Positions 6,945 through 40,358 of a DNA stretch of 42,992 bases are shown in pieces. The notes below the pieces were generated by a model that did no database searches, was not told where the DNA came from, and worked only from the letters and a program-made list of their open reading frames with translations. Position numbers and translations under genes: made by a program. Each line of letters begins with the position of its first letter. Position 1 is the stretch's first letter. Origin of the DNA: an uncultured Flavobacteriaceae bacterium (lineage in GTDB: Bacteria > Bacteroidota > Bacteroidia > Flavobacteriales > Flavobacteriaceae); assembly GCA_965367355.1 (NCBI GenBank), contig CBDUIO010000001.1, positions 1 through 42,992 on the forward strand, given 5' to 3'.

Positions 6945-6981
6945 AAAAAAACCTCATATTTAATTGAATATGAGGTTTTTA
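6945..6981. terminator. Bidirectional rho-independent terminator
   Basis: ACCTCATATT (6951-6960) pairs perfectly with AATATGAGGT (6967-6976). This gives a 10-bp stem and a 6-nt loop, flanked by an A-run and a T-run. It sits between the convergent small ORF and metK. Confidence 0.75.
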
Positions 6982-9788: not shown

Positions 9789-9811
9789 AATTTAATTTGT
9801 TAGTTTTATTT

Positions 9812-10150
9812 TTACTTTAAAGTTTGACCTCCCTTTTCGCCGGTTCGAATTCTGTAACTCTCTTTTACGTCTGATACAAAGATCTTTCCGTCACCAACTT
9901 CACCTGTTACAGCAGCTTTAAGAATAGCTTTAATGGTTGGTTCCTCAAAATCATCATTGACTACAATGGATAAATAACGTCTTTGAATATCGCTTGTACT
10001 ATAAGAGATGCCTCTGTAAACATGACCTTCCTTTTCGTGGCCTATTCCTGTTACATCCCAGTAAGAGAAAAATTGAACATCTACAGCATGAAGTGCTTCC
10101 TTTACTGCACCATACTTGGATTTTCTGATTATTGCTTCGATTTTTTTCAT
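9812..10150 (-). CDS. glnK: P-II nitrogen regulatory protein
   Basis: 112 aa. It has MKKIEAIIR, a T-loop YRG and a TGEVGDGKIFV...IRTGE B/C-loop pattern. It lies immediately upstream of amtB. Confidence 0.9.
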   Translation of the reverse strand: MKKIEAIIRKSKYGAVKEALHAVDVQFFSYWDVTGIGHEKEGHVYRGISYSTSDIQRRYLSIVVNDDFEEPTIKAILKAAVTGEVGDGKIFVSDVKESYRIRTGEKGGQTLK

Positions 10151-10183
10151 AATTAATTTATTTAGTTAGAATGAATATTTATG

Positions 10184-11191
10184 TTAGAATGATACAATTG
10201 CGGCTATTGTAGCGGCAGCTAAGTTGTCTGAAGCCGCTCCATCATTGTCAAAATATGGCATACTATTGCTCCAGGAATCTAATCGGATCTCTGGCTTAAT
10301 AATTAAGTTGTCTTGAACAACTAAGCTTCCTGTTAACGTAAGGCCTAAAACACTTGGCAAGTCGTCTCCATCTCCATGGAATCCATAGAACTCACCTCTT
10401 AAGCCTAATGAAAAGATATCAGAAGTTGCTAATTGTGGATACAGAGCTGCACCGTAGAAACCTGAACCATCATTGTCATTATAAGCGGCATTAATACCTA
10501 AGAAGAAATCATCAGATAAATCGAAACCACCTGTGTAATCAATTTCAAAACCTAAGCCACCGTTGTTGCCACTATCATAATATAAGTTTAAATATTGACC
10601 GGCATATCCCAATTGAGCTCCAAGAGCATATTCTCCAGATGCAGATGTATTGTTCGTGTCCCAAGGATTTGTAATAGCTAGCATAAGGCTTACATCGTCA
10701 GATAGAGCAAAATCAGCTTTTATACCCATATGTGAAAATGGACCGCTAGAGAACAAATAAGATGTACTGTAGTTAAAGTTTGCTGCCGGGGCAATAACTT
10801 CGTAACCTAAAAAGGTATTCCATCTACCAAAAGTTAATGTAGTACTTTCTGATACACTCCAGTAAACATAAGCTTGGTTTACAATACCATCAACAATATC
10901 ATTGCTAAAAGTAGCACCAGCACCACGTGGTCCGGTAACCAAATCAAGAACTGCACCTACTTTACCACTTTCGTAGCTCACAATCAAGTTTCCCATTCCG
11001 AATGCAAAACCAGATTGATCAGCAAAAGCAGTTCCAAAAGCAGGAGCTTGATTGTCTGGGGCTGTTAAATATGTCTGGTAGTAACCGTCTACACTACCGC
11101 TAATAGATAATTTTTTCTCGGTTGTTTCTTTTTCTTGCGCAATTACATTAATACTACTGATTAATAGAAATGCTAAAATAATTTTTTTCAT
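10184..11191 (-). CDS. Putative outer-membrane porin co-operonic with glnK-amtB
   Basis: The internal ATG (11189-11191, minus strand) gives the signal peptide MKKIILAFLLISSINVIAQE. The protein is Gly/Tyr/Asp-rich with alternating beta-strand character and a C-terminal ...AAIVSF aromatic end. It lies 33 nt upstream of glnK. Confidence 0.55.
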   Translation of the reverse strand: MKKIILAFLLISSINVIAQEKETTEKKLSISGSVDGYYQTYLTAPDNQAPAFGTAFADQSGFAFGMGNLIVSYESGKVGAVLDLVTGPRGAGATFSNDIVDGIVNQAYVYWSVSESTTLTFGRWNTFLGYEVIAPAANFNYSTSYLFSSGPFSHMGIKADFALSDDVSLMLAITNPWDTNNTSASGEYALGAQLGYAGQYLNLYYDSGNNGGLGFEIDYTGGFDLSDDFFLGINAAYNDNDGSGFYGAALYPQLATSDIFSLGLRGEFYGFHGDGDDLPSVLGLTLTGSLVVQDNLIIKPEIRLDSWSNSMPYFDNDGAASDNLAAATIAAIVSF

Positions 11192-11220
11192 AATTTTTAG
11201 TTTATTAGTTATTGAAGCCC

Positions 11221-11228
11221 CAAAACTA
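11221..11228 (-). promoter_or_regulatory. Candidate -7 promoter box for the porin-glnK-amtB operon
   Basis: The plus strand reads CAAAACTA, which is TAGTTTTG on the minus strand, an exact TAnnTTTG. It lies about 30 nt upstream of the porin ATG. Confidence 0.4.
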
Positions 11229-11293
11229 TATAAAAAGATTTTATACCACCTAAAAAAAAGGGTAAATAACATCATTTTTACGATAATGATATT

Positions 11294-11320
11294 TTTAACC
11301 CTAAAAAATTAGGGGTTAAA
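11294..11320. promoter_or_regulatory. Strong palindrome / hairpin TTTAACCCTAA-aaaa-TTAGGGGTTAAA in the divergent nitrogen-assimilation control region
   Basis: About 11 bp of complementarity with one bulged G. The only GC-containing core (CCC/GGG) sits in a very AT-rich 450-bp spacer. It lies about 70-100 bp upstream of the candidate porin promoter. Confidence 0.4.
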
Positions 11321-11640
11321 ATAATAAATAGTAATTTTTTATGAATTTAAAAATTAAAATTGTGCTATTTGAACATTATCTGTATTATTACCTAAATGTT
11401 TTAATAGTTTTTAATATATCATTTAATTATCTGTAAAGTAATTATCAAAATGTTGTCAATTTTTTAAATGATATTAGTTTGATAATTCGTATTTTTTGAC
11501 TTCTATTTCCCAAAGAATTTAAAAAATAGAGCTTAAAAATATCAAACTCATAATAATGATTATAAGATTATGATAATTGATAGGTAAGCTATTATATTCG
11601 TCCGACTAACTAATTAATCATTAAATTAAAACAGAAGATT

Positions 11641-14600
11641 ATGCTGAGGAAACAAGGAATGTATTTACCGGAATTTGAACATGATAATTGTGGAGCTGGA
11701 TTTATATGTAGCTTAAAAGGAATAAAGTCCAACGATATAATTCATAAAGCACTGGAAATTCTTGAGAAATTAGAACATCGCGGTGCCGTTAGTGCTGATG
11801 GAAAAACAGGAGATGGTGCCGGAATTTTAATCGATATCCCTCATGATTTTTTTGTTAAAAATTGCGATTTTGAGTTACCCGAATTTGGAGAATATGCTGT
11901 AAGTAATGTGTTTTTACCAAAGAAGGACAATCAGCAGTCGTATTGCATTGGAGTTCTTGAAAAGCATATGGCAGAGCAGGGTCTAAATGTTCTGGGATGG
12001 AGAACTGTTCCTATAGATGTGTCTGTCTTAGGCGAAATAGCTGCAACTACACAACCATTTGTGAAGCAGATTTTTATTGCTAAGGCTGATAAAAAACAAG
12101 ATGATTTCAAATTCAATTTAAAATTATTCATAGCACGAAAGAAGGCTGAACATGAGATTTTTGGTTCTAAACTTTCAGAAAGTAACTTCTTTTATGTGCC
12201 AAGCTTATCAACCAAAACAATTATTTTCAAAGGGCTCCTAATTCCACAGGATATAAAACTTTTCTATAAGGATTTGACAGATCCTACTCTTGTTACTCGT
12301 TTGGCATTGGTACATCAGCGATTTTCTACGAATACATTTCCTACCTGGGATCTGGCACAACCATTTAGATACATGTGTCATAACGGAGAGATTAACACCT
12401 TACGTGGAAATTTATCAAGAATGACCTCCAGAGAAGCTTTAATGGAAAGTGACTGGTTTGGTGACGAAATAAAAAATATTTTACCTGTTGTATTAAAAGG
12501 TAAGTCTGATTCAGCATCAATGGATATGGTAGTTGAGTTACTCCTTATGACCGGAAGATCCTTGCCAGAAGTCATGATGATGTTAGTGCCCGAAGCCTGG
12601 GAAAAGAATACAGAAATGTCTGAAACTAAAAAGGCTTTTTACGAATATAATTCATGTGTCATGGAGCCTTGGGATGGTCCTGCTTCTATTCCGTTTACAG
12701 ATGGTAATTACATTGGAGCTGTTTTAGACAGAAACGGATTGCGTCCTTCCAGATATTCTGTAACTAAAGATGGCTATGTGATCATGTCCTCTGAAACCGG
12801 AGTTATAGAAATTGCTCCGGAAAACATCGCGCAGCATGGAAGATTAGAACCCGGAAAAATGTTTTTGGTTGATATGAATGAAGGGAGAATTGTGAATGAT
12901 GAAGAAGTAAAAGAAAATATTGTTAAAAAATATCCCTATAAAAAATGGCTAAAGGAAAAACTTTTGTACTTAAAGGATATACCATATAACGATTGTCCTG
13001 TTCATTTTAATGAGGAGACTTTAAACAAAAGACAAACAATTTTTGGTTACACAAAAGAAGATATAAATACTATTATACTACCAATGGCTAAAACAAGTAA
13101 GGAGCCTATAGGTTCTATGGGAAATGATACTCCTATTGCTGTTTTGTCAGAAAGGCCACAATTATTATTCAATTATTTTAAGCAATTATTTGCTCAGGTA
13201 ACTAATCCGCCATTAGACGGTATTCGTGAAGAGTTAATTACAGATATAAGCCTGACTCTTGGCAAAGATTCCAATATTTTTGAAATAAGTCCGGACCATT
13301 GTAAAAAACTAAAAATTGAGAATCCTGTTATTTCTAAACAAGATTTAGATAAAATAAAGAGCAATAAAAAATCAGGGTTCAAAGCAACTACAATTCCTAT
13401 ATTATATAAAATTGATAAAGGCCACAACGGGTTAGAAAATGCTCTTGAAGAAATGCTTGTATCCGTTTCCAAGGCAATAGATGAGGGAACCCATATTATT
13501 ATATTGTCAGACAGGAATGTTGATAAAGAGAATGCTCCAATACCATCATTGCTTGCCTGTTCCTATGTCAATAGCGGACTCCAAAGTTTAGGTCAGCGAT
13601 CCAAAATAAGTATTATTGTTGAATCTGCAGAACCTAGAGAAGTTCATCATTTCGCCTTGTTATTCGGCTATGGAGCAAGTGCCATAAATCCATATATGGT
13701 CAATGAGATTATTGAAAAGCGAGTTAAACGAAATGAAATTGAAGTAACATCATCTATTGAGGCAGTAAAAAATTACAATAAGGCTGTTGGCAAAGGAATA
13801 CTTAAGGTCATGAACAAGATTGGAATCTCCACTCTAAATTCATACAGAGGCTCTCAATTATTTGAGTGCATTGGTATTAATACGAATGTGGTAAATAAAT
13901 ACTTTCCAAATACAGCAACCAGAATTCAGGGAATAGGATTGCATGAAATTGAAAAGGAGATCAACAAACGCTATTCCAATGCTTATAAAGAAAGAACAAT
14001 TGATGGTGACCTTGAACTTGAAATTGGAGGTCAATACCGATGGAGAAGAAATGGCGAACATCATTTATTTAATCCGCTTACCATTGCAAAGCTGCAGGAA
14101 GCAGTTAGGGCAAATAAACCAAATACATATAAGGAATATGCTGAATTGGTGAATAACCAGTCCAAACAATTAATGACCATCAGAGGTTTGTTCGAATTCA
14201 CCAATTATGACCCAATTCCTATAGATCAGGTTGAATCCTGGACTGATATAGTAAAGCGATTCAAAACAGGAGCAATGTCATACGGATCTATAAGTAAGGA
14301 AGCTCACGAAAATCTTGCTATTGCTATGAACAGGATTGGTGGTAAGAGCAATTCCGGAGAAGGAGGAGAAGATGAGGAACGATATTATAAGGATGGTACG
14401 GGAGACTGGAAAAATAGTGCAATAAAGCAAGTAGCTTCTGGTCGATTTGGGGTAACTTCAAATTATTTGACCAACGCATCAGAGATTCAGATAAAAATGG
14501 CTCAAGGAGCAAAACCCGGTGAAGGTGGGCAACTGCCTGGAGCTAAGGTTAATCCACAGATTGCGAAAACAAGAAATTCTACGCCTTATGTAGGATTGAT

Positions 14601-16143
14601 TTCACCGCCACCACACCATGATATTTACTCTATTGAAGATTTATCTCAATTAATATATGATTTAAAATCTGCAAACAGACAAGCTAGAATCAACGTGAAG
14701 TTGGTATCAGAAGTAGGCGTGGGAACTGTCGCAGCCGGTGTAGCAAAGGCGAAAGCAGATGTTATTTTAATTTCGGGACATGATGGCGGAACAGGTGCTT
14801 CACCTTTAACCTCTTTAAAACATGCAGGATTGCCATGGGAATTAGGCTTAGCTGAAGCCCAGCAAACTTTGGTCATGAATAATTTAAGAAACAGAGTTGT
14901 TCTGGAATGTGATGGCCAGCTAAAAACAGGAAGAGATGTGGCTATAGCATGCTTGTTAGGAGCCGAAGAATTTGGTTTTGCAACAGCACCTTTAGTTGCT
15001 TCCGGCTGTATTATGATGAGAGTGTGCCATTTAAATACATGTCCCGTTGGAATTGCTACTCAAAATCCGGAATTGCGTAAAAAATTTGAAGGTCAACCGG
15101 AACACGTCGTTAACTTTATGTATTTCATTGCTCAGGAATTAAGGGAGATCATGTCTCAACTTGGGTTTAGAACTGTGAATGAAATGGTAGGTCAGGTTCA
15201 AAAACTGAACAGAAGTAAAACGATTGATCAATACAAGGCTCTAGGAATTGATTTATCACCAATTTTACATAGAGTACCTGTTTCAGAAAATATCAAATTA
15301 TACAATACAGAAACGCAGGATCATCATATTGAAAAGGCATTAGATTTTCAAGTGATTTCTCAAGCGCATCCTGCCATTTTCAGAAAAGAAAAAATAACTT
15401 TAGATTTCAAAATAACAAATGAAGACAGAGCATTTGGAGCTGTTTTAAGTAATGAGATTTCAAAGATATATGGATCACAGGGATTACCGGAAAATACACT
15501 AAAAATAAATTTCAAGGGATCTGCCGGTCAAAGCTTTGGTGCATTTGCTACTAAAGGACTTACCTTGGTAATAAGGGGAAACACAAACGATTATTTGGGT
15601 AAAGGCTTATCTGGAGCAAAAATAATAGTCAAGGTTCCGGAAGAAGCCACAATTATACCGGAAGAAAATATCATAATTGGCAACGTCGCGTTATACGGAG
15701 CAACTTCAGGAGAAGCTTATATTAACGGTAAGGCAGGCGAACGTTTTTGCGTTAGAAATTCAGGTGCTAAAGCTGTAGTTGAAGGAATTGGAGATCATGG
15801 ATGCGAGTATATGACAGGAGGTGTAGCGGTGATATTAGGTGAAGTTGGAAGGAATTTTGGAGCTGGAATGAGCGGCGGAATAGCCTATATCTATGATTCC
15901 CATAAAACATTCAAAAAAAGATGCAATTTTGAAGGATTGAACTTAGATCCGGTAACTAACAAGGAAGATAATAAGCAATTAAAGCTACTAATTGAGAATC
16001 ATTATAATGCCACTTTGAGTCCGCTGGCTCAACGAATATTGGAAAACTGGGAAAAAGAATTGCGTAAATTCATTAAGGTTCTTCCTGAAGAATACAGGCA
16101 AGCCTTAATAAGATTGGAAAAAGAAAATCTTATAAAACTTTAA
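11641..16143 (+). CDS. gltB: Glutamate synthase large subunit
   Basis: 1500 aa. It has an Ntn-amidotransferase Cys (DNCGAGFI), FMN/Fe-S domain motifs and a GXGXG C-terminal domain. Confidence 0.95.
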   Translation: MLRKQGMYLPEFEHDNCGAGFICSLKGIKSNDIIHKALEILEKLEHRGAVSADGKTGDGAGILIDIPHDFFVKNCDFELPEFGEYAVSNVFLPKKDNQQSYCIGVLEKHMAEQGLNVLGWRTVPIDVSVLGEIAATTQPFVKQIFIAKADKKQDDFKFNLKLFIARKKAEHEIFGSKLSESNFFYVPSLSTKTIIFKGLLIPQDIKLFYKDLTDPTLVTRLALVHQRFSTNTFPTWDLAQPFRYMCHNGEINTLRGNLSRMTSREALMESDWFGDEIKNILPVVLKGKSDSASMDMVVELLLMTGRSLPEVMMMLVPEAWEKNTEMSETKKAFYEYNSCVMEPWDGPASIPFTDGNYIGAVLDRNGLRPSRYSVTKDGYVIMSSETGVIEIAPENIAQHGRLEPGKMFLVDMNEGRIVNDEEVKENIVKKYPYKKWLKEKLLYLKDIPYNDCPVHFNEETLNKRQTIFGYTKEDINTIILPMAKTSKEPIGSMGNDTPIAVLSERPQLLFNYFKQLFAQVTNPPLDGIREELITDISLTLGKDSNIFEISPDHCKKLKIENPVISKQDLDKIKSNKKSGFKATTIPILYKIDKGHNGLENALEEMLVSVSKAIDEGTHIIILSDRNVDKENAPIPSLLACSYVNSGLQSLGQRSKISIIVESAEPREVHHFALLFGYGASAINPYMVNEIIEKRVKRNEIEVTSSIEAVKNYNKAVGKGILKVMNKIGISTLNSYRGSQLFECIGINTNVVNKYFPNTATRIQGIGLHEIEKEINKRYSNAYKERTIDGDLELEIGGQYRWRRNGEHHLFNPLTIAKLQEAVRANKPNTYKEYAELVNNQSKQLMTIRGLFEFTNYDPIPIDQVESWTDIVKRFKTGAMSYGSISKEAHENLAIAMNRIGGKSNSGEGGEDEERYYKDGTGDWKNSAIKQVASGRFGVTSNYLTNASEIQIKMAQGAKPGEGGQLPGAKVNPQIAKTRNSTPYVGLISPPPHHDIYSIEDLSQLIYDLKSANRQARINVKLVSEVGVGTVAAGVAKAKADVILISGHDGGTGASPLTSLKHAGLPWELGLAEAQQTLVMNNLRNRVVLECDGQLKTGRDVAIACLLGAEEFGFATAPLVASGCIMMRVCHLNTCPVGIATQNPELRKKFEGQPEHVVNFMYFIAQELREIMSQLGFRTVNEMVGQVQKLNRSKTIDQYKALGIDLSPILHRVPVSENIKLYNTETQDHHIEKALDFQVISQAHPAIFRKEKITLDFKITNEDRAFGAVLSNEISKIYGSQGLPENTLKINFKGSAGQSFGAFATKGLTLVIRGNTNDYLGKGLSGAKIIVKVPEEATIIPEENIIIGNVALYGATSGEAYINGKAGERFCVRNSGAKAVVEGIGDHGCEYMTGGVAVILGEVGRNFGAGMSGGIAYIYDSHKTFKKRCNFEGLNLDPVTNKEDNKQLKLLIENHYNATLSPLAQRILENWEKELRKFIKVLPEEYRQALIRLEKENLIKL

Positions 16144-16147
16144 TGCT

Positions 16148-17614
16148 ATGGGAAAGATAACAGGATTTTTAGAATATAAAAGAGAGGTAGAAAAATACGA
16201 ATCGGTCAATAAAAGATTGAAAAACTATAAGGAGTTTACTATTCCAATGAATGGGAAGAACTTAAGTGAACAAGGAGCGAGATGCATGGATTGTGGTATC
16301 CCGTTTTGCCATAGCGGTTGTCCTTTAGGTAATTTAATTCCGGATTTTAATGACAAAGTTTACAATGGAAGATGGAAGGATGCTGCTAAAATTTTACATT
16401 CAACAAATAACTTCCCGGAGTTTACAGGTAGATTATGTCCTGCTCCATGCGAAGAAGCTTGTGTTTTAGGTATTAATGAAGATCCGGTTTCAATAGAGAA
16501 TATTGAAAAGAATATTGTTGAAACCGCTTTTAAAGAGGGGTGGATCACGGCTAATCCTCCAGAAAAAAGAACAGACAAAAAAGTTGCAGTAATAGGGTCC
16601 GGACCATCTGGTTTGGCCGCTGCTCAACAATTAAATAGAGCAGGACATCATGTAACTGTTTTTGAAAGAGATAAGAAAGTTGGCGGATTATTGAGATATG
16701 GCATCCCTGATTTCAAAATGGAGAAGTATGTAATAGACCGAAGATTGAAAATATTAGAAGAAGAAGGAATTGTCTTTAAGACGGATGCTCATGTTGGAAT
16801 AAATGTGAAAGCAGATGATATTAAAAAAGAATTCGATGCTGTTTTACTTTGTGGAGGAGCAACAGAAAGAAGAGGAATACCTGTAAAAGGATCAGATTTA
16901 AAGGGGGTTTATCAGGCTATGGATTTCTTAAAGCAAAATAATCAAAGAGTAGACGGTATATCCGGTTTTGAAGAAGAGATTTACGCGAAGGATAAAAATG
17001 TCATTGTAATTGGTGGTGGAGATACAGGTTCAGATTGTATAGGAACGAGTAACAGACATGGTGCCAAATCGGTTGTTAATTTTGAAATTTTAAGTAAACC
17101 TACAACAGGTCGTCCTGCTCATCAGCCCTGGCCATATTGGCCAATGAGATTAAGAACCAGTTCTTCACATAAAGAAGGTGTTGAACGATTTTTTAGTATT
17201 TCAACCAAAGAGTTTATTGGAGATAAAAAAGGCAATCTAACGGGACTGGTAACTGTTGAGGTTGAGTGGATATTTAAAGAAGGGGAGCGACCTGAATTAA
17301 GAGAGATTCCTAATACAGAAAAACACTGGGATTGTGATTTAGTTTTTCTGGCACTTGGATTTACAGGACCAGAGAAAACTTTACCTGAAGCATTTGGTTT
17401 AAAGACAGATTTCAGATCTAATATTGATGCATCGGCTAAAAATTATAAAACAAATGTTCCCGGAGTATTTGCTGCAGGTGATATCAGACGTGGACAATCT
17501 TTAATTGTCTGGGCGATCTCAGAAGGAAGGCAGGCAGCCCATCATATTGATAAGTATTTGATGGGAAATAGCTTTTTACCTTTAAAAGACGATAATGATC
17601 TTCCCAGGGTTTAG
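16148..17614 (+). CDS. gltD: Glutamate synthase small subunit (NAD(P)H-dependent)
   Basis: 488 aa. It has N-terminal Cys clusters (CMDCGIPFC, CPAPCEEAC) and dinucleotide folds VAVIGSGPSGLAAA and VIGGGDTGSDC. It starts 4 nt after gltB. Confidence 0.95.
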   Translation: MGKITGFLEYKREVEKYESVNKRLKNYKEFTIPMNGKNLSEQGARCMDCGIPFCHSGCPLGNLIPDFNDKVYNGRWKDAAKILHSTNNFPEFTGRLCPAPCEEACVLGINEDPVSIENIEKNIVETAFKEGWITANPPEKRTDKKVAVIGSGPSGLAAAQQLNRAGHHVTVFERDKKVGGLLRYGIPDFKMEKYVIDRRLKILEEEGIVFKTDAHVGINVKADDIKKEFDAVLLCGGATERRGIPVKGSDLKGVYQAMDFLKQNNQRVDGISGFEEEIYAKDKNVIVIGGGDTGSDCIGTSNRHGAKSVVNFEILSKPTTGRPAHQPWPYWPMRLRTSSSHKEGVERFFSISTKEFIGDKKGNLTGLVTVEVEWIFKEGERPELREIPNTEKHWDCDLVFLALGFTGPEKTLPEAFGLKTDFRSNIDASAKNYKTNVPGVFAAGDIRRGQSLIVWAISEGRQAAHHIDKYLMGNSFLPLKDDNDLPRV

Positions 17615-17719
17615 ATTTTTTTCTTAAAAAATACCCTCTTTTGGACATCATAAAAAGAACTAGTTAAACATTTAATAATCAGTGGTATAGGTCTTATAAA
17701 GTTACTCTGACAATAGTCT

Positions 17720-17749
17720 ATGATTGTCATTGTTAATTCTTATAACTAG
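17720..17749 (+). promoter_or_regulatory. Candidate Ile/Val mini leader ORF (MIVIVNSYN) upstream of ilvD
   Basis: The sequence is ATG ATT GTC ATT GTT AAT TCT TAT AAC TAG. GACAAT (17709-17714) can pair with either ATTGTC (17723-17728) or ATTGTT (17729-17734). I found no convincing downstream terminator. Confidence 0.25.
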
Positions 17750-17809
17750 CCATTAATATAATTTAGAAATTTTATTGCCAAAATTTGTAAAAGCGGAAGC
17801 TTAAATTGT

Positions 17810-19489
17810 ATGAATAAATTAAATAAATATAGTAAGACAGTCACCCAGGATCCAACCCAACCGGCGGCTCAAGCCATGCTTCATGCAATTGGACTGACCA
17901 AAGAAGATTTTTATAAACCAATTGTTGGAATAGCAAGTACGGGATACGAGGGAAACCCTTGTAATATGCACCTGAATGATCTGGCAAAACTAGCTAAAAA
18001 GGGGACAGCAAATGAAGATGTAATTGGATTGATCTTTAATACAATTGGCGTAAGTGATGGAATATCAATGGGAACACCCGGAATGCGTTATTCATTGCCA
18101 TCAAGAGATATTATTGCAGATTCTATGGAAACTGTAGTACAAGCCATGAGTTATGATGGGTTGATCACTGTAGTTGGATGCGATAAAAATATGCCCGGAG
18201 CATTAATGGCCATGATAAGGTTAAACCGACCATCTATATTAATTTATGGAGGAACCATTGATTCAGGTTGTCATAATGGTAGAAAATTGGATATAGTTTC
18301 TGCTTTTGAAGCATGGGGAAGCAAAGTAGCAGGTACTATGGACGAAACGGAATACCAACATATAGTAGAAAAAGCCTGCCCTGGAGCTGGTGCTTGCGGA
18401 GGCATGTATACCGCAAATACAATGGCTTCGGCAATTGAAGCTTTAGGTATGGCGTTACCTTATAATTCATCGAATCCTGCAACAGGTGAAGAAAAGAAAT
18501 TAGAGTCAGTTAGAGCTGGTGAAGCGATGAGAAACTTACTTGAAAAAGACATTAAACCTTTAGATATTATCACTCGGAAATCATTGGAAAATGCAGTTCG
18601 TTTGGTAACTATTTTAGGTGGCTCAACAAATGCCGTATTACACTTTCTGGCCATTGCAAGAGCAGCCCAAATAGAATTTACTTTAGAAGATTTTCAAAAA
18701 ATTAGTGACAATACACCATTCCTGGCAGATCTTAAACCAAGTGGAAAATATCTTATGGAAGATGTTCATGCAGTTGGAGGTATTCCGGCGGTTTTAAAAT
18801 ATTTGCTGAAAAAAGGATTGTTGCATGGCGACTGCTTAACCGTAACAGGTAAAACTCTTGCTGAAAATTTATTGGATGTAAATGATTTAACTGAAGGCCA
18901 GGAGGTTATAAAGCCAATTGAAAATCCTATCAAAATTTCGGGTCACCTAAGAATGTTATATGGCAACCTTGCCGAACAAGGGAGCGTTGCAAAGATTACC
19001 GGGAAAGAAGGGTTGAAATTCTCTGGAAAAGCAAAAGTTTTTGAAGGAGAATATGATGCCAATGATGGTATAAGAGAAGGAAAAGTTGAAAAAGGAGATG
19101 TCGTTGTTATCCGTTATGAAGGACCAAAAGGAGGACCTGGAATGCCGGAAATGTTAAAACCTACTGCCGCAATAATGGGTGCAGGATTGGGAAAAGATGT
19201 GGCTTTGATCACAGACGGACGTTTCTCTGGAGGTACGCACGGCTTTGTAGTTGGTCACATAACGCCTGAAGCTCAGGAAGGTGGAAATATTGCTTTGGTA
19301 AAAGACGGAGATATTATAACTATAGATGCTGAAACTAATTCAATTATTCTTGAGGTTTCAGAGGAAGAATTAAATCAAAGACGAAAAAATTGGAAAGCAC
19401 CAAAATTAAAATTTGATAGAGGTGTCTTATATAAATATGCAAGAACCGTGTCATCAGCATCTAAAGGATGTGTTACTGATGAATTTTAA
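17810..19489 (+). CDS. ilvD: Dihydroxy-acid dehydratase
   Basis: 559 aa. It has [14 protein letters not shown] and [15 protein letters not shown] motifs. Confidence 0.95.
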
Positions 19490-19559
19490 AATATAACAAG
19501 TTCAATTCCTTGAACATAGTCAAAAAGGACTCTAAAGAAAGTAAGAAAAAATAAATCTT

Positions 19560-21296
19560 ATGAAAGAAACTCAAACAATTGAATCCAAATTAAATCCATC
19601 AGAAACTACTGAAAGAATTTCTGGTAGCGAAGCTGTTATAAAATGTTTGCTTGCAGAAGGTGTCGATGTGCTCTATGGTTACCCTGGAGGCGCTATCATG
19701 CCAATATATGATGAGCTTTATAAATATCGGGATAAGATCCATCATGTTTTAACACGCCATGAACAGGGAGCAACGCATGCAGCACAGGGATTTGCAAGAA
19801 TCTCCGGAAGAGTAGGTGTAGCTATGGCGACTTCAGGACCAGGTGCGACAAATCTTATTACCGGAATTGCAGATGCTCAAATAGATTCAACTCCAATGGT
19901 ATGTATTACGGGTCAGGTAGCATCACATTTATTAGGTAGTGATGCTTTCCAGGAAACTGATATTGTTGGAATTTCAACGCCGGTCACAAAATGGAATTAT
20001 CAAATAACTAAGGCTTCCGAGATTCCTGAGATCCTGGCTAAAGCATTTTTTATAGCCAAAAGTGGTCGTCCCGGACCTGTTTTAGTCGATATTACTAAAG
20101 ACGCTCAATTTGAAGAATTTGATTTCAAATATGAAAAATGTAAAAGTGTAAGAAGTTATAAGCCCGTTCCAACAACCGATTTTTTCAAGCTTCAGGCAGC
20201 AGCAGATGCCATAAATTCGGCTAAAAAACCATTGATTGTCTGGGGTCAGGGAATAATTTTAGGGGAAGCAGAAAAGGAGCTGACTGAGGTTATTGAAAAA
20301 GCGGGAATTCCTGCCGCATGGACAATTCTTGGTGCTTCGGCAATTCCTACCTCTCATCCATTAAATGTCGGTATGGTTGGTATGCACGGTAATTATGCGC
20401 CTAATGTTTTAACAAATGAGTGTGATGTTCTTATTGCAATAGGAATGAGGTTTGATGATCGTGTGACGGGTAATTTAGAAACTTATGCAAAACAAGCTAA
20501 GATCATACATTTTGAGATTGATCCGGCAGAAGTTGATAAAAATGTAAAAACAGACATTGCTGTCTTAGGAAATGCAAAAGAAAGTTTAAAACTTTTATTG
20601 CCTTTACTCAACAAAAACAAGCATACAACATGGCTCCAAAAATTTAAGGAATTGTATGAAATTGAGTATGAAAAGGTCATAAAAGGTGATCTGCACCCAA
20701 CAAAGGAAGGTTTGACAATGGGTGAGGTTTTAAAAGAAATCAATAAGCAAACAAAAGGTGAAGCTGCTATAGTTTCAGACGTTGGTCAGCACCAGATGAT
20801 TGCTTGCAGATATGCCGAATTCAATAAAACAAAAAGTAACATTACATCAGGTGGATTAGGTACAATGGGATTTGGACTTCCGGCAGCAATTGGCGCAAAA
20901 ATGGCAGCCCCGGAAAGAGAAGTCGTATGCATCTCTGGTGATGGTGGTTACCAAATGACCATACAGGAATTAGGAACTATTTTTCAAACCAAAGCTGCTG
21001 TTAAGGTAGTTGTTTTGAATAATGACTTTTTAGGTATGGTGCGTCAATGGCAACAATTATTCTTTGATAAGCGATATGCTTCAACAGAAATGGTCAATCC
21101 GGATTTTGTAGCCATCGCCAAAGGATATTACATCAATGCGAAACGAGTTTCTAACCGCGCAGATTTAAAGGATGCGGTTGCTGAAATGATTGCAAGTAAA
21201 GAACCTTATTTCCTAGAAGTTAAAGTAGAAAAAGAGGATAATGTATTTCCAATGATACCATCCGGAGCGAGTGTATCAGATATAAGATTAAGTTAA
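19560..21296 (+). CDS. ilvB: Acetolactate synthase (AHAS) large subunit
   Basis: 578 aa ThDP enzyme. It has GYPGGAIMPIYD, GSDAFQETD and GGLGTMGFGLPAAIGAK...GDGGYQM motifs. Confidence 0.9.
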   Translation: MKETQTIESKLNPSETTERISGSEAVIKCLLAEGVDVLYGYPGGAIMPIYDELYKYRDKIHHVLTRHEQGATHAAQGFARISGRVGVAMATSGPGATNLITGIADAQIDSTPMVCITGQVASHLLGSDAFQETDIVGISTPVTKWNYQITKASEIPEILAKAFFIAKSGRPGPVLVDITKDAQFEEFDFKYEKCKSVRSYKPVPTTDFFKLQAAADAINSAKKPLIVWGQGIILGEAEKELTEVIEKAGIPAAWTILGASAIPTSHPLNVGMVGMHGNYAPNVLTNECDVLIAIGMRFDDRVTGNLETYAKQAKIIHFEIDPAEVDKNVKTDIAVLGNAKESLKLLLPLLNKNKHTTWLQKFKELYEIEYEKVIKGDLHPTKEGLTMGEVLKEINKQTKGEAAIVSDVGQHQMIACRYAEFNKTKSNITSGGLGTMGFGLPAAIGAKMAAPEREVVCISGDGGYQMTIQELGTIFQTKAAVKVVVLNNDFLGMVRQWQQLFFDKRYASTEMVNPDFVAIAKGYYINAKRVSNRADLKDAVAEMIASKEPYFLEVKVEKEDNVFPMIPSGASVSDIRLS

Positions 21297-21298
21297 TT

Positions 21299-21820
21299 AT
21301 GGAAGAGAAAGAAAATTTTACGGTTTCGGTCTATACCGAAAATAATGTGGGAATATTGAATCGCTTATCTGCAATATTCTTGAAACGTCACATTAATATA
21401 GAAAGTTTAACAGTTTCAAAATCTGAAATTGATAATGTCCATAGATTCACTTTTGTAGTTATTGTTCCTAAAACATTAATAAGAAAGGTTGTTGGGCAGT
21501 TAGAAAAGCAAATAGAAGTTATTAAGGCATTCTATCATACAGAAGATGAGATCATATATCATGAAACGGCCCTGTTCAAAATCTCTTCAGAGCATTTATA
21601 TGATGAACAGATTCAGGATAAAATGAAATTCAGAAGGGCTCATATCATTGCGATTACAGAGCGGTATTTTGTGATTGAAGCTTCAGGGTTAAGGGATGAC
21701 ATAGATAATATGTATGAAAAATTAAAACCTTATGGTTTGTTGCAGTTCGTTCGCTCAGGAAGAATAGCAATATCAAGACCCAAAATGGCAATATCAGAAT
21801 TATTAGCAGAAATTAATTAA
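21299..21820 (+). CDS. ilvN: Acetolactate synthase small (regulatory, ACT-domain) subunit
   Basis: 173 aa. It has the N-terminal ACT pattern VYTENNVGILNRLSAIFLKRHINIESLTV. It starts 2 nt after ilvB. Confidence 0.85.
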   Translation: MEEKENFTVSVYTENNVGILNRLSAIFLKRHINIESLTVSKSEIDNVHRFTFVVIVPKTLIRKVVGQLEKQIEVIKAFYHTEDEIIYHETALFKISSEHLYDEQIQDKMKFRRAHIIAITERYFVIEASGLRDDIDNMYEKLKPYGLLQFVRSGRIAISRPKMAISELLAEIN

Positions 21821-21835
21821 AAGATAAAATAGAAA

Positions 21836-23335
21836 ATGGTAAATTATTTTAACACACTTTCATTAAGAGAACAATTAGATCAATTGGGAAAATGCAGGTT
21901 TATGGATTCCTCAGAATTCAGTGAGGGTGTTTCAGCATTAAAAGGAAAAAAAATTGTAATAGTAGGTTGTGGGGCTCAAGGTTTGAATCAGGGATTGAAC
22001 ATGAGAGATTCAGGCCTGGATATTTCTTATGCATTGCGGGATGGAGCGATAAAAGAAAAAAGAGCGTCATATGTAAATGCGACTAAAAATAACTTTAAAG
22101 TTGGCACTTATGAAGAATTGATTCCAGGTGCAGATCTGGTTGCCAATTTAACCCCGGACAAGCAACACACAAGTGTTATAAAGGCCGTTATGCCATTGAT
22201 GAAAAAGGGAGCTACTTTATCCTATTCACATGGATTCAATATAGTTGAAGAAGGTATGCAAATCCGTAAGGATATTACTGTAATTATGGTTGCACCTAAA
22301 TGTCCCGGATCTGAAGTTAGGGAAGAATATAAACGCGGATTTGGAGTACCAACACTAATTGCTGTGCATCCTGAAAATGATCCACAAGGAAAAGGATTAG
22401 CCGAAGCTAAAGCATATGCAGCAGCAACCGGAGGTGATAGAGCAGGTGTTTTACAATCCTCTTTTGTAGCCGAAGTTAAAAGTGATTTGATGGGTGAGCA
22501 AACCATTTTATGTGGCGTTTTGCAAACAGGATCCATTTTATGTTTTGATAAAATGATCGAAGAAGGAATCGAACCGGCTTATGCTTCAAAATTAATTCAA
22601 TTTGGTTGGGAAACTATTACCGAAGCATTGAAACATGGTGGAATTACCAATATGATGGACAGATTGTCCAATCCGGCAAAAATTAAAGCCTTCCAATTAT
22701 CAGAGGAATTAAAAGTTATAATGAAACCATTGTTTGAAAAGCATATGGACGATATCATGTCCGGTCATTTCTCGAAGACCATGATGGAAGACTGGGCTAA
22801 TGATGATGTGAATTTATTAAAATGGAGAGCTGCTACAGGTGAAACAAATTTTGAGAAAACAGCTGCAACATCAGAGCATATCAAAGAGCAGGAGTATTTT
22901 GACCATGGCGTTTTAATGGTTGCCTTTGTACGTGCAGGGGTTGAATTGGCTTTTGATACTATGGTAGCATCAGGAATTATTGAAGAATCAGCTTATTACG
23001 AATCGTTACACGAATTGCCATTAATTGCAAATACTGTGGCAAGAAAAAAATTATTCGAAATGAACAGAATCATTTCTGACACGGCTGAATATGGTTGTTA
23101 TTTATTCGATCATGCATGTAAACCTCTATTAACTGATTTCATGAAAACAGTTAAAACAGATGTTATTGGTAAATCATTTTCTAAATCCAATTCAGTTGAT
23201 AACGTTGAGTTGATAAAGGTTAATGAAGTAATCAGGCAGCATCCTATTGAATCCATTGGAAAAACATTGCGAAGTGCAATGACGGCAATGAAAGTCATAA
23301 AATCTGACACAAAGCAAGAAGCAATTTTATCTTAA
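21836..23335 (+). CDS. ilvC: Ketol-acid reductoisomerase, long (class II) form
   Basis: 499 aa. It has [25 protein letters not shown] and a duplicated knotted C-terminal domain length like E. coli IlvC. Confidence 0.9.
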
Positions 23336-24932: not shown

Positions 24933-25068
24933 TATAGAAGTATGATAAAACAGATTAAAAATGAATTATTTATAATAAAATAATGTCATTTTGTTGAATT
25001 TCATAATTATTAATAAAAAGTCAAGCGGATTAAACAGTTAATTCAATTTAATTTTTAGTTTTACACCA

Positions 25069-25137
25069 ATGAATACTCAAAAAAATAAAATACGTACGTT
25101 TTTACCCAGGTTACCCGAGCGCAACCGTCGCCGCTAA
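25069..25137 (+). promoter_or_regulatory. Candidate arginine leader peptide uORF1 (MNTQKNKIRTFLPRLPERNRRR)
   Basis: 22 codons, of which 6 are Arg. Four of the last five codons are Arg (CGC AAC CGT CGC CGC TAA). It lies in the 430-nt leader of the arg operon. Confidence 0.45.
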
Positions 25138-25186
25138 TTCTTCTTTTTAGGAACAAACCTTTTTACGTAATTTTTATTTATTCATC

Positions 25187-25279
25187 ATGTTTACATCAAG
25201 TTTTAAGTCAGTCTTTATAAAATTAGTTATTAAAAATAACGTGATTTCAAGTCGACCTAATTTTCCGCGTCGCCCTTAA
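25187..25279 (+). promoter_or_regulatory. Candidate second leader uORF2 (MFTSSFKSVFIKLVIKNNVISSRPNFPRRP)
   Basis: 30 codons ending CCG CGT CGC CCT TAA (Pro-Arg-Arg-Pro-stop). It shares the CGTCGCC string with the end of uORF1. Its last codons form the 5' arm of a GC-rich hairpin. Confidence 0.35.
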
Positions 25280-25287
25280 GGGTGTGC
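25267..25287 (+). promoter_or_regulatory. GC-rich hairpin over the uORF2 Arg-Arg-Pro-stop
   Basis: GCGTCGCCC-TTAA-GGGTGTGC gives 8 pairs, including 2 G-U pairs and 1 bulge. The stop codon TAA lies in the loop. It is unusual for its GC content in this leader. Confidence 0.4.
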
Positions 25288-25296
25288 TATTAATTG

Positions 25297-25325
25297 GGAA
25301 CTCAAGGTGTGTCCGGTTCTGTTTT
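25297..25325 (+). terminator. Weak stem plus U-tract (possible attenuator terminator) 40 nt before the first arg gene
   Basis: GGAAC(u)C(aa)GG-UGUGU-CCGGUUCU is followed by GUUUUC. The stem is interrupted by bulges. Confidence 0.3.
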
Positions 25326-25365
25326 CGAAAATCAATTTTAATAACAATAATAAAAGATCAAAATA

Positions 25366-25989
25366 ATGGAAATCATTATTGCCGATAAATCACATAGCAT
25401 TTATGCAAATATTATTTGCGAATCTATTGCTGAAGCCGCTCAGGTCAGGGGAACAGGTATTGCCAAAAGAACTCCAGATTACATTATAAATAAAATGGAG
25501 AAAGGTAATGCTGTCATTGCGCTGGACGGAGATAAGTTTGCTGGATTTTGTTACATTGAATCCTGGAGTCATGGCAAATTTGTAGCCAATTCCGGACTAA
25601 TAGTTCATCCGGATTATCGGGGAAATGGGCTGGCTAAAAAAATAAAAAAAGTAGTTTTTGAACAGTCCAGAAATAAATTTCCAGACTCCAAAGTATTCAG
25701 TATTACTACTGGATTGGCTGTTATGAAAATGAACAGTGAATTAGGATACAAACCGGTTACCTTTTCTGAATTAACAGATGATCCATCATTTTGGAGCGGC
25801 TGTCAGACTTGTAAGAATTATGATGTTTTACAACGTACAAATCAAGCCATGTGCTTGTGTACAGGAATGCTTTATGATCCAGTAAAAATCAATGAGTCTA
25901 AAAGGCATGAGCACAAATATGATAAAAAAGTTTGGACGCGATTAAAAAATATAAAACAGATCAGGTTTTTAAAAAACAATAAAAAATGA
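25366..25989 (+). CDS. GNAT-family acyltransferase, first gene of the arginine operon (candidate N-acyl-glutamate synthase)
   Basis: 207 aa. It has a GNAT acyl-CoA motif region (VHPDYRGNGLAKKI). The C-terminus has a CxxC-x13-CxC cluster. Its stop overlaps the argG start (ATGA). Confidence 0.6.
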   Translation: MEIIIADKSHSIYANIICESIAEAAQVRGTGIAKRTPDYIINKMEKGNAVIALDGDKFAGFCYIESWSHGKFVANSGLIVHPDYRGNGLAKKIKKVVFEQSRNKFPDSKVFSITTGLAVMKMNSELGYKPVTFSELTDDPSFWSGCQTCKNYDVLQRTNQAMCLCTGMLYDPVKINESKRHEHKYDKKVWTRLKNIKQIRFLKNNKK

Positions 25990-38064: not shown

Positions 38065-39183
38065 TTAAATAATAGTGGACTGTCCCAGATGTATGTTTTG
38101 AAAATTAAAGTTGGAGTCATTTGGATTATTAATGACATCTTCTATAAAATCTCCTACTTTATTTGTGGTTATATTATCAAATTTTGTGTTTAGATCTGGG
38201 GTGGTGATATAAAGTCTCAAAGATTTATCTACTGCTTTTCTTATTAAATATGCCTCATCATGTAATTCAAAATGATCCAGCAGCATTGCTGCCGATAAGA
38301 TGGATGCAATTGGATTTGCTATGCCTTTACCAGTTGCCTGAGGATACGAACCATGAATTGGTTCGAACATCGCATGTTTATCTCCAATTGATGCCGAAGC
38401 TAACAATCCTATAGACCCGCCAATAACGCTTGCCTCATCGCTTATAATATCGCCAAACATATTCTCAGTCAGGATTACATCGAACTGTCTAGGATTAATT
38501 ATCATTTGCATCGCAGCATTGTCAACAAATAAAAAGTCCAGTTCCACCATTGGATATTGTGTGCCAATTTCAGTCACTACCTTGCGCCAAAGTCTGGAAC
38601 TTTCTAACACATTGGCCTTATCTATTAGTGTTACCTTATTTTTTCTTTTCTGTGCAGCTTTAAATGCTAGATGCGCAATACGCTCAATTTCAAAACGAGA
38701 ATACTTACATAGGTCTGATGCAGTATTCCCATCATCGCTAATTTCTTTCTCTCCAAAATATATCCCACCTGTGAGTTCACGATAAATGCTAATATCAGCT
38801 CCTTTGATATTTTCCTTTTTTAAAGGAGATTTTTTTAACAAAGAATCGTAAGCTTTTACAGGTCTTATATTTGCGAACAAGCCTAATTCTTTTCTTAATC
38901 TTAATAAGCCTTGTTCCGGACGCACTTTAGCATTGGGATCATTGTCATATTTTGGATGGCCAATGGCTCCAAAAAGTATGGCATCACTTTTACGACATAG
39001 ATTTAATGTCTCATCGGGTAATGGATTTCCAGTTTCATCTATGGCAATAGCGCCAACCTTGGCATTTTTAAATACAAAATGGTGATTGAATTCGACAGCA
39101 ACTGCCTTTAAAACCTTTATGGCCTGATTTGTAACTTCAGGACCAATGCCATCACCGGATAATACTGCAATATTTAGTTTCAT
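38065..39183 (-). CDS. leuB: 3-isopropylmalate dehydrogenase
   Basis: 372 aa, with LSGDGIGPEV, NLFANIRP and NMFGDIISDEASVIGGSIGL motifs. Confidence 0.9.
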   Translation of the reverse strand: MKLNIAVLSGDGIGPEVTNQAIKVLKAVAVEFNHHFVFKNAKVGAIAIDETGNPLPDETLNLCRKSDAILFGAIGHPKYDNDPNAKVRPEQGLLRLRKELGLFANIRPVKAYDSLLKKSPLKKENIKGADISIYRELTGGIYFGEKEISDDGNTASDLCKYSRFEIERIAHLAFKAAQKRKNKVTLIDKANVLESSRLWRKVVTEIGTQYPMVELDFLFVDNAAMQMIINPRQFDVILTENMFGDIISDEASVIGGSIGLLASASIGDKHAMFEPIHGSYPQATGKGIANPIASILSAAMLLDHFELHDEAYLIRKAVDKSLRLYITTPDLNTKFDNITTNKVGDFIEDVINNPNDSNFNFQNIHLGQSTII

Positions 39184-40358
39184 TAAGCTGACTTTATTTC
39201 ATTGTAAACCTTACTGGTTTCTACGATTCGGTGAATATCATTATCATCGATTTCTTTTTTGTTATCTGCAAAGGTTAAAAAATTAGAATAAACCTCGTCT
39301 AATTGCAGTTTAGTCAACTCATAACCAATCTTTTTTGCTCTATAAGCCAAGGCTGCTCTTCCGCTTCTGGCTGTAAGAACAATTGCGGAGTCTGTCACAC
39401 CTACATCTTTAGGATCGATGATCTCATATGTTTGTCTATTCTTGATCACACCATCCTGGTGAATCCCTGAGCTATGTGCAAAAGCATTGGCTCCAACGAT
39501 TGCTTTGTTAGGTTGTGTGTATATTCCCATGCTATCAGATACTAACTGACTAATACCATATAACATCTCAGTTTGAATATTAGTTTCAAGGTTTAAATAT
39601 GGGTGTTGCTTCAGTATCATGACAACCTCTTCAAGAGCGGTGTTTCCAGCACGTTCTCCAATTCCATTGATTGTGCATTCTATTTGGCGAGCACCATTGA
39701 TAACGCCTTCAATTGAGTTTGCAGTTGCAAGCCCCAGATCATTGTGGCAGTGACAAGATAAAATTGCTTTATCAATTCCTTTGACGTTTTCCATTAAATA
39801 TTTCATTTTTGCTCCATACTCGTGCGGAAGGCAATATCCTGTGGTATCCGGAATATTTAAAACCGTCGCACCGGCTTTAATGACTGCTTCACAAACTCTG
39901 GCTAAGTATTCATTATCGGTTCTACCGGCATCTTCTGCATAAAATTCAACATCTTCAACAAAAGACTTGGCATAAGTAACTGCAGCTACTGCACGCTCAA
40001 TTATTTCTTTCCGATTTGAATTGAATTTGTGAATGATATGAGAATCAGAAGTACCAATTCCAGTATGTATTCTAGGTTTTTTGGCATATTTCAAAGCCTC
40101 GGCAGCTACTTTTATATCGTTTTCAACAGAACGAGTTAAACCGCAGACTGTAGCATTTTTCACTAATTTTGCTATTTCTTCAACCGATTTGAAATCGCCG
40201 GGACTGGAAACCGGAAAGCCGGCTTCAAGAACATCCACCCCCAAATTATCAAGCTGTTCTGCAATAATAAGTTTTTGACGTGTATTTAATTTACAGCCAG
40301 GAACTTGTTCACCATCTCTTAGTGTTGTATCAAATATTTCTACTTTATTCGTCGACAT
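39183..40358 (-). CDS. leuA: 2-isopropylmalate synthase-like (short form without C-terminal LeuA allosteric domain; citramalate/homocitrate synthase not excluded)
   Basis: 391 aa DRE-TIM enzyme, with [21 protein letters not shown] and [12 protein letters not shown] motifs. The protein ends shortly after the catalytic and linker subdomains. Its stop overlaps the leuB start by 1 nt (TAATG). Confidence 0.7.

Follow-up and report, generated by a model that had tools for sequence, protein, structure and literature searches.

An arginine-codon leader upstream of the arginine operon of Flavobacteriaceae as a candidate ribosome-read arginine sensor

Arginine biosynthesis is usually presented as controlled by the ArgR repressor, and we know of no place for leader-peptide attenuation of this pathway in the textbook picture. 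For other amino acids, the classical attenuators of Proteobacteria (trpL, hisL, pheL, leuL, thrL and ilvL) and the Bacteroid-trp motif share a leader open reading frame (ORF), codons for the operon's own amino acid near its end and conserved hairpins, and the position of the ribosome is the presumed signal. In Flavobacterium psychrophilum, leader peptides have been noted for the his, ilv, trp and aromatic amino-acid operons (PMC9723704). Here, we analyzed the leader of the arginine (arg) operon in a 42,992-nucleotide (nt) stretch of an uncultured Flavobacteriaceae bacterium (assembly GCA_965367355.1, contig CBDUIO010000001.1), hereafter called the window. The leader shares the features listed above for the classical attenuators, and ribosome position is likewise its presumed signal. 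Unlike in them, no canonical terminator and no terminator/antiterminator alternative was found in it, and it carries two serial upstream ORFs (uORFs), the first predicted to be leaderless, that are joined by a long-range (LR) helix. From the comparison of related leaders, we propose with a probability of about 0.7 that ribosomes on it sense arginine by the hungry-codon principle, responding to Arg-tRNA, with an arrangement in many lineages as a two-stage relay. A leader peptide for arginine synthesis was found neither described in the searchable literature nor in Rfam, which is not proof of absence.

Several described systems resemble parts of this leader. It is generally known that in the tnaC-tnaA operon of Escherichia coli a ribosome held at the end of the leader ORF hides the neighboring RNA from Rho and thereby allows read-through, and that the TnaC peptide ends in Arg-Pro-stop; however, TnaC uses a conserved nascent peptide to sense the free amino acid and induces a catabolic operon, whereas in the arg leader the Arg codons, not the peptide, are conserved and the operon is biosynthetic. 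The pyrBI leader ORF of E. coli enters the terminator hairpin, so that the ribosome itself, and not an RNA antiterminator, would prevent the hairpin, although pyrBI reads uridine triphosphate via how fast RNA polymerase moves and not an amino acid via how fast the ribosome moves. The output that we favor below has its nearest precedent in orf34 of Salmonella speF, or SpeFL in E. coli, where consecutive Arg codons sense low arginine by stalling, as proposed here, with alternative RNA states and Rho-dependent termination (PMC6386406). The speF leader differs in preceding an ornithine decarboxylase gene, in also sensing ornithine by its nascent peptide, and in being enterobacterial and Shine-Dalgarno-led (PMC6386406), and it has no sequence or structural homology to the arg leader. 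In the rbfL leader of Staphylococcus aureus, arginine limitation is sensed by pausing of the uORF at Arg codons of a particular tRNA-Arg, but the ribosome blocks an overlapping ribosome-binding site and starvation means off (PMC13009471). Unlike in rbfL, the first arg gene starts about 90 nt downstream and is paired with nothing in the leader.

The locus under study is the 433-nt gap at 24933-25365, flanked by an aldehyde-dehydrogenase gene on one side and by the arg operon on the other. The operon comprises nine genes on the + strand, as are all leader features described here: a GNAT acetyltransferase gene with its ATG at 25366, argG, argC, proC, argD, an acetyl/succinyl-ornithine carbamoyltransferase gene, argB, argE and argH. 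The original prediction, made from the sequence of the window, had described in a gap of about this length two uORFs with Arg-rich ends, a string common to both, and two hairpins, and all of these were recovered where it had placed them. The first uORF (uORF1; 25069-25137; MNTQKNKIRTFLPRLPERNRRR-stop) has six Arg in 22 codons, with Arg as four of the last five codons (tail RNRRR-stop; Arg run 25120-25134), exactly as counted before. The boundaries of uORF2 (25187-25279; 30 codons; MFTSSFKSVFIKLVIKNNVISSRPNFPRRP-stop) and its end, SSRPNFPRRP-stop, were likewise exact; its Arg codons stand at 25253-25255 and 25268-25273. The shared CGTCGCC occurs at 25126-25132 and 25268-25274. When the gap was shuffled 3000 times with dinucleotides preserved, two shuffles yielded an ORF of 15 or more codons whose last five included three or more Arg, and two yielded two ORFs with Arg-rich tails; a two-uORF Arg-rich leader is unlikely to arise by chance.

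For the comparison, the 80 loci closest to the query were taken, with flanking DNA, from an alignment of the GNAT protein family, each from a different Flavobacteriaceae species. They cover about 35 genera, including Winogradskyella, Psychroserpens, Polaribacter, Tenacibaculum, Gelidibacter, Psychroflexus, Leeuwenhoekiella, Maribacter, Zobellia, Gillisia, Salegentibacter and about 25 more, and all comparative evidence given here is sequence comparison inside this one family. The original prediction had made its case depend on conservation, and the orthologous leaders of these genera retain the two uORFs with their Arg codons as well as the hairpin. One genome alone (L012) has a uORF1 without an Arg run, and it also misses both hairpins, P1 and P2, that follow the uORFs. 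In another locus (L008:1-75, contig CAJXUO010000366.1), the first bases include TCGTCGGCAGCGTCAGATGTGTATAAGAGACAG, the leader is truncated there, and a spurious ORF (MCIRDR...) begins inside; these initial bases look like leftover Illumina Nextera adapter.

An ORF of the uORF1 type, 21-24 codons long with an Arg-rich tail, was present in 52 of 76 leaders, with a mean of 3.3 Arg in the last six codons. The uORF1 frame runs on without a stop for 20 codons or more in all 52, against 15 and 4 for the other two frames. Both synonymous families of Arg codons are used in uORF1 (17% AGR), which argues for selection on the meaning of the codons and not on the nucleotide sequence alone. For uORF2, about 48 of 52 two-uORF leaders have an in-frame start (ATG, GTG or TTG) 29-31 codons ahead of the stop; the start is often a weak GUG or UUG with a U-rich tract upstream. 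In 69 of 71 distinct leaders, the Arg frame has no stop codon over 24 or more codons upstream of the Arg-Arg pair at P1, whereas the other frames stay open that far in 8 and 5, in A+T-rich sequences where chance stop codons are frequent. The C-terminal consensus is [VI]RRxF[PF]RR(R)P. The Arg-Arg pair is found in all 66 distinct leaders with a locatable tandem CGN-CGN, one Arg is kept at P1 in Polaribacter-type leaders, and a second Arg cluster lies 5-6 codons upstream of the pair. Residues other than Arg vary freely between clades in both peptides. It is thus well supported by this comparison that the uORFs are real coding units under selection, with the Arg codons as the selected feature. 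Arg codons under selection directly before arginine-making genes are the signature expected of hungry-codon sensing, and the conservation of uORFs, Arg codons and hairpin supports, at the level of sequence, the central claim of the original prediction that ribosomes on two Arg-rich uORFs read the arginine supply.

Hairpin P1 (25267-25287; GCG-U-CGCCC / UUAA / GGGUG-UGC) is the GC-rich hairpin with the UAA stop of uORF2 in its loop that had been described before. Its 5' arm consists of the Arg-Arg-Pro codons of uORF2, in general form CGN-CGC-CCN. The core CGCCC/GGGUG occurs in nearly all leaders, with a mean energy of -8.2 kcal/mol for the hairpin. The compensatory CGCAC/GUGCG replaces this core in L070, L073 and L074, all from the Gillisia/Salegentibacter/Zunongwangia clade, with Pro changed to Thr in the peptide, and Psychroflexus leaders carry GCCC/GGGC (L018, L020) or CGCCC/GGGCG (L052). 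Since Pro changed to Thr together with the compensation in the stem, the terminal Pro follows the RNA pairing and not the peptide. The stop codon of uORF2 lies in the P1 loop in most leaders and elsewhere after P1, in the spacer or in the 5' arm of P2; in Polaribacter- and Tenacibaculum-type leaders it comes 3-9 codons further on (RPLGV-stop), and in the Gillisia clade uORF2 ends in PRT-stop, RRT-stop or FPRRTFVRV-stop.

These variants bear on a different sensing mechanism, in which the nascent peptide would be arrested by free arginine, so that at high arginine the ribosome stalls at ...FPRRP near the uORF2 stop and the operon is off. The commonest uORF2 end, [FIL]-[PF]-R-R-P with the stop in the hairpin loop, fits this idea, as do the general knowledge that a Pro-stop context terminates slowly and the Arg-Pro-stop end of TnaC. 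However, the position of the stop varies, the terminal Pro was exchanged for Thr in step with P1, and the conserved residues of uORF2 are only the last four or five, which coincide with the P1 stem. In uORF1 only Arg is conserved, the KNKIR codons being accounted for by the LR helix. It can also be reasoned that an arrest site made of Arg codons would stall in starvation too, which would leave the two states indistinguishable. We therefore consider arrest by free arginine very improbable, and the likeness to the fungal arginine attenuator peptide, TnaC and SpeFL drawn in the original prediction points to the less likely mechanism, given the varying stop position and terminal residue.

The two uORFs are connected by the LR helix, in which uORF1 codons ~3-12 pair with 20-40 nt that end at the uORF2 start. 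In the window, the 5' strand (25069-25098) comprises the start codon and the KNKIR codons AAAAAAAUAAAAUACGUACG, and it pairs with 25147-25186, a 3' strand with a U-rich tract and a core at 25165-25186 that ends directly at the uORF2 start codon (AUGAAUA...AAUAAAAUACGUACG). The duplex energy is -11.1 kcal/mol in the window; over 51 leaders the mean is -12.4 kcal/mol versus -7.4 for shuffles (mean z score -2.2, and z below -2 in 31 of 51). Clade variants remain complementary, as in AAAUAAAAUACGU/ACGUAAUUUUAUUU, AAUAUAGAGU/ACUCUAUAUU and AAAUAAAAACG/CGUUUUUAUUU. The best 13-nt segment of the 3' strand contains 8-12 U in all 51 leaders, and the distance from the end of the helix to the uORF2 start is 0-15 nt (0-12 nt in 50 of 51). 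The LR helix explains the conserved KNKIR codons of uORF1, and because it ends at the uORF2 start, this start would be hidden when the helix forms. Inside uORF2, the RNAalifold consensus contains a further hairpin, P0 (25226-25240; GUUAUU-AAA-AAUAAC), with a mean z of -1.33 and z below -1.5 in 33 of 71 leaders; its stems vary and still pair, for example as AAUUAUC/GAUAAU and CAGGA/UCCUG.

We also considered that the uORFs might encode small proteins acting in trans, or that the conservation is at the DNA level, for example of repressor sites, with no translational sensing in cis. The conserved length of both ORFs would agree with this, but the peptides diverge except at Arg and at positions constrained by RNA helices, and selection on RNA is indicated by the G-U pairs in P1, P2 and the LR helix and by their strand-specific covariation. 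Arg runs right before arg genes are, moreover, the classic signature of a leader peptide, and we find this explanation scarcely credible.

A sigma-A -7 promoter box of the Bacteroidetes type (TAGTTTTA; 25056-25063) lies 5 nt upstream of the uORF1 ATG. Across the leaders, the end of the box TAnnTT[TA][GA] is 4 nt from the uORF1 ATG in 38 of 50 and 5 nt in 7 of 50. Mapped transcription starts place the Bacteroidetes box at -12 to -5 (PMC9723704) or 4-5 nt from the transcription start site (PMC6847099). The position of the box and these published maps predict a leaderless uORF1 mRNA or one with a leader of 1 nt, and in lineages with a single uORF the predicted leaders are 0-4 nt. The original prediction had named a transcription start downstream of 25279 as contrary evidence; the predicted start is at the uORF1 ATG.

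About 15 lineages, among them Leeuwenhoekiella, Maribacter, Zobellia, Arenibacter, Robiginitalea and Formosa, have one uORF of 25-45 codons that ends in RRRP-stop and also runs into P1 and P2. This arrangement suggests that the core module is an Arg-rich uORF followed by P1 and P2, with uORF1 as an added first stage.

In the sensor that we propose, the predicted leaderless 5' end would let a ribosome load on uORF1 as soon as the RNA emerges. With plentiful Arg-tRNA, uORF1 would be translated and vacated, the LR helix would close and uORF2 would stay untranslated; the G-poor, C-richer leader would then be free of ribosomes and the operon transcript would be cut short. With scarce Arg-tRNA, ribosomes would stall and queue on the Arg run of uORF1 and keep the LR helix open, the 22 codons giving room for about two ribosomes, so that a stall at the Arg run would occupy early uORF1. 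With the helix open, a ribosome could translate uORF2 and park on its VRR and RRP codons, either at the base of P1 or inside it, and the parked ribosome would permit read-through to the arg genes. Where a lineage has one near-leaderless uORF that ends in RRRP, it would possess the second stage only; common to all lineages, a parked ribosome would signal starvation and an operon that is on.

Downstream of P1, a U-rich, G-free spacer (25288-25296) leads to hairpin P2 (25297-25320). The base composition of this spacer over 74 leaders is U 62%, A 26%, C 10% and G 2%, and the first 8 nt after P1 include at least five U in 43 of 74. In P2, a lower stem of 6 base pairs (bp) is followed by a bulge, whose last base is always A, and by a GG/CC upper stem (GA/UC in Psychroflexus) with an almost invariant UGNGU loop (UGUGU in the window); in the window, GUUUUC follows the hairpin. 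The lower stem has a mean of 5.85 of 6 pairs versus 5.19 +/- 0.07 when 3' arms were shuffled and the register was re-optimized, and none of 3000 shuffles reached the observed value; three positions show three to five pair types. These counts come from an anchored manual alignment with the register-re-optimized control, as the covariance-model alignment put the lower stem in the wrong register and a MAFFT alignment of the hairpins alone misplaced the bulge. The distance from the P1 start to the P2 loop is constant at 32-35 nt. Three genomes (L057, L079, L031) keep a plain hairpin, or no hairpin, in the place of P2. Thus, of the stem with U tract formerly proposed at 25297-25325, the stem stands as a conserved hairpin and the U tract does not, a run of at least four U after P2 being present in 22 of 76 leaders. 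The near-duplicate AAGGTGTG noted there is not a spare arm of P1 but the bulge, upper stem and loop of P2, and the duplicated arm AAGGUGUG is the apex of that hairpin.

A covariance model built from the P1-P2 region matched 80 of 81 sources, with an additional weak match (E = 0.23) in L009, and gave a single match in the 43-kb window (25234-25344; 89.6 bits). A metagenome scan with the P2 15-mer returned 120 contigs, of which 16 contain the full motif, each followed by the GNAT arg gene; the remaining 104 matches are chance occurrences inside coding DNA, mostly in ABC-transporter Walker-A codons. The leader lies directly upstream of the GNAT-argG-argC operon in all genome loci and metagenome contigs that carry it. 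The restriction of the motif to arg leaders in both scans indicates that the element is specific to arg operons. The ilv and leu upstream regions in the window were inspected and contain no P2-like hairpin.

This specificity, the covarying stem of P2 with its bulged A, GG/CC and nearly invariant loop, and the constant distance to P1 would also suit an operator or aptamer, in which P2 alone or P1, spacer and P2 together bind an arginine-specific protein or small molecule and the uORFs merely modulate; bulged-A hairpins with a conserved loop are generally known as typical protein-binding sites. Against it, a scan of 25069-25365 with Rfam 15 returned no family match at E up to 10, the element is small, three leaders dispense with the bulged form of P2 as given above, and the strong coding constraint on both uORFs is no side effect. 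No candidate binding protein was found. On balance, we regard an operator or aptamer with merely modulating uORFs as improbable. A combined form, an attenuator that works without a terminator/antiterminator switch by a two-ribosome relay and in which P2 additionally serves as operator for an arginine-specific partner (a protein, arginine or a related metabolite), also seems unlikely.

Some observations touch on what P2 might bind. The C-terminal part of the GNAT protein (25366-25989; residues ~145-207), beyond the acetyltransferase fold, contains an invariant CxxC...CxC cluster and a strongly basic tail, KKVWTRLKNIKQIRFLKNNKK, and from this sequence we considered that the region might bind the P2 hairpin. 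The AlphaFold model has low confidence in the Cys-rich basic C-terminus and is uninformative on an RNA-binding module; a PDB sequence search with the GNAT family returned only generic acetyltransferases, with matches limited to the GNAT core. The bulge and loop of P2 (25304-25314) read AAGGUGUGUCC, and the leader consensus is UAGGUGAGUCC. The invariant AGGUGA in it is the complement of UCACCU, which lies close to the 16S rRNA 3' end, and this would make it Shine-Dalgarno-like. Ribosomes of the Bacteroidetes phylum are reported normally to hide the 16S rRNA tail (PMC7797042, PMC13000453), and arginine genes are not mentioned in a 2026 paper on anti-Shine-Dalgarno mutants. The likeness may be a coincidence.

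Between P2 and the GNAT start lies an A-rich, G-poor unstructured spacer that includes the GNAT translation start region (25321-25365); across leaders it measures ~48 nt, with 4.7% G and 16% C. The GNAT start region has no complementarity to any leader element (z +0.25 to +0.67), and masking of the start by the head of uORF2, by P1 or by P2 was rejected on the positive z values. With the GNAT start unpaired, control is more likely to act on RNA synthesis or stability than by masking of the start site. Six leaders (L003, L004, L023, L043, L047, L169) have an added 30-50 nt with a strong hairpin of its own between P2 and the GNAT ATG, for example AUUUCCUC-CUUU-GAGGAAAU in L023. In the insertion leaders among the genome loci, P2 is ~96-113 nt from the ATG, and since the insertions shift P2 away, no fixed distance between P2 and the start codon seems to be required.

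The minimum-free-energy fold of the whole leader is not more stable than shuffles (z = +1.16), so global stability is uninformative here. Upstream in the leaders, the 5' arm of P1 has no G-rich partner. Pairing of this arm with the duplicated AGGUG in P2 was dismissed, as the CGCAC/GUGCG clade has lost it without any change in the P2 loop. P2 as a canonical terminator is unlikely because its stem is weak and the U tract is not conserved. Between P1 and P2 there is no mutually exclusive antiterminator, in agreement with the earlier failure to derive a terminator/antiterminator pair by eye. Two strong bidirectional terminators, each with a stem of 13-15 bp between an A tract and a U tract, occur in the window at 1-29 and 6947-6980, and the hisG leader of F. 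psychrophilum has a clear 9-bp stem at its end (PMC9723704). These examples indicate that the organism uses ordinary terminators, and the arg leader is without an obvious one. Leader ORFs and a cluster of own-amino-acid codons are thus present and a mutually exclusive antiterminator is not, and on this failed test the arg leader was not assigned to the class of classical attenuators.

Four outputs were weighed. We tentatively favor a roadblock to Rho set up by the parked ribosome, as in tna and speF; on a leader bare of ribosomes, Rho would load and overtake a polymerase slowed at the U-rich spacer and P2. The C/G ratio of the leader is 1.4-3.2 versus 0.87 in upstream DNA and 0.72 in coding DNA; the absolute C content, however, is only 15-20%, and three hairpins interrupt this stretch. 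P1 with its U-rich spacer could be a weak terminator, but its role as an intrinsic terminator occluded by the ribosome, the analogue of pyrBI, is doubtful. Shielding of the mRNA from decay by stalled ribosomes and binding of a factor or ligand to the invariant P2 loop are each an unlikely output.

Several results weigh against the ribosome-read sensor as proposed. A consensus terminator scan gave no hit in the leader, P2 is weak (mean about -5.9 kcal/mol) and lacks a regular U run, and an antiterminator formed from the P1-P2 spacer and the 5' arm of P2 was rejected, as its energies equal those of shuffles (mean z = +0.19). By reasoning, occlusion of a P1 terminator has the wrong sign in single-uORF lineages under tight transcription-translation coupling. 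The ribosome queue that would hold the LR helix open is speculative. Two tentative hairpins in uORF1 and just beyond, H1 (25109-25126, directly before the Arg run) and H2 (25134-25150, with the uORF1 stop codon), are visible by eye in many leaders with differing sequences but are statistically weak (mean z about -0.6). The near-invariant loop and bulged A of P2 are unexplained by models that involve only ribosomes. Finally, CGC and CGU make up 75% of the Arg codons of uORF1 and 91% of those of uORF2, whereas 48% of the Arg codons in GNAT genes of the same loci are AGA. This bias, seen at 25120-25134, at 25268-25273 and in all leaders, could reflect either the sensing of one tRNA-Arg isoacceptor or only the G+C need of hairpins, and it could in part be the G+C need of P1 and H1 and not one-tRNA sensing.

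Concerning the repressor, no ArgR data for Bacteroidetes were found in the searchable literature, and 29 window ORFs of at least 120 amino acids gave no repressor-family match, in a scan that did not include two large ORFs at 11641-17614, possibly glutamate synthase. The window carries a nitrogen and amino-acid gene cluster (8547-23335 and 38065-40358) with an ammonium transporter, a porin, ilvD, ilvB, ilvN and ilvC, in addition to the arg operon with its embedded proC, a ThrE-type exporter pair, and leuA and leuB on the opposite strand. At 17720-17749 (+), 60 nt before ilvD (17810) and upstream of ilvD-ilvB-ilvN-ilvC, there is a 9-codon ORF, MIVIVNSYN-stop (ATG ATT GTC ATT GTT AAT TCT TAT AAC TAG), with its start codon within a GACAAU...AUUGUC hairpin and no canonical terminator after it; from its sequence, it looks like a candidate Ile/Val leader peptide.

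If the proposal is true, an Arg-codon leader across Flavobacteriaceae, a major marine group, would fill the arginine gap among the attenuated pathways and would hint at how a lineage can do without ArgR at the arg operon. The Bacteroidetes phylum does not use the Shine-Dalgarno sequence, and the predicted leaderless uORF1, the weak GUG or UUG starts and the helix-gated second start would represent a design for sensing by ribosomes without it. The Arg codons, the LR helix, P1 and the P2 loop are discrete elements that can be mutated in tests of the hypothesis, and the covariance model could annotate such leaders in hundreds of genomes. Should P2 have a metabolite as its partner, it would be the first natural RNA element that responds to arginine.

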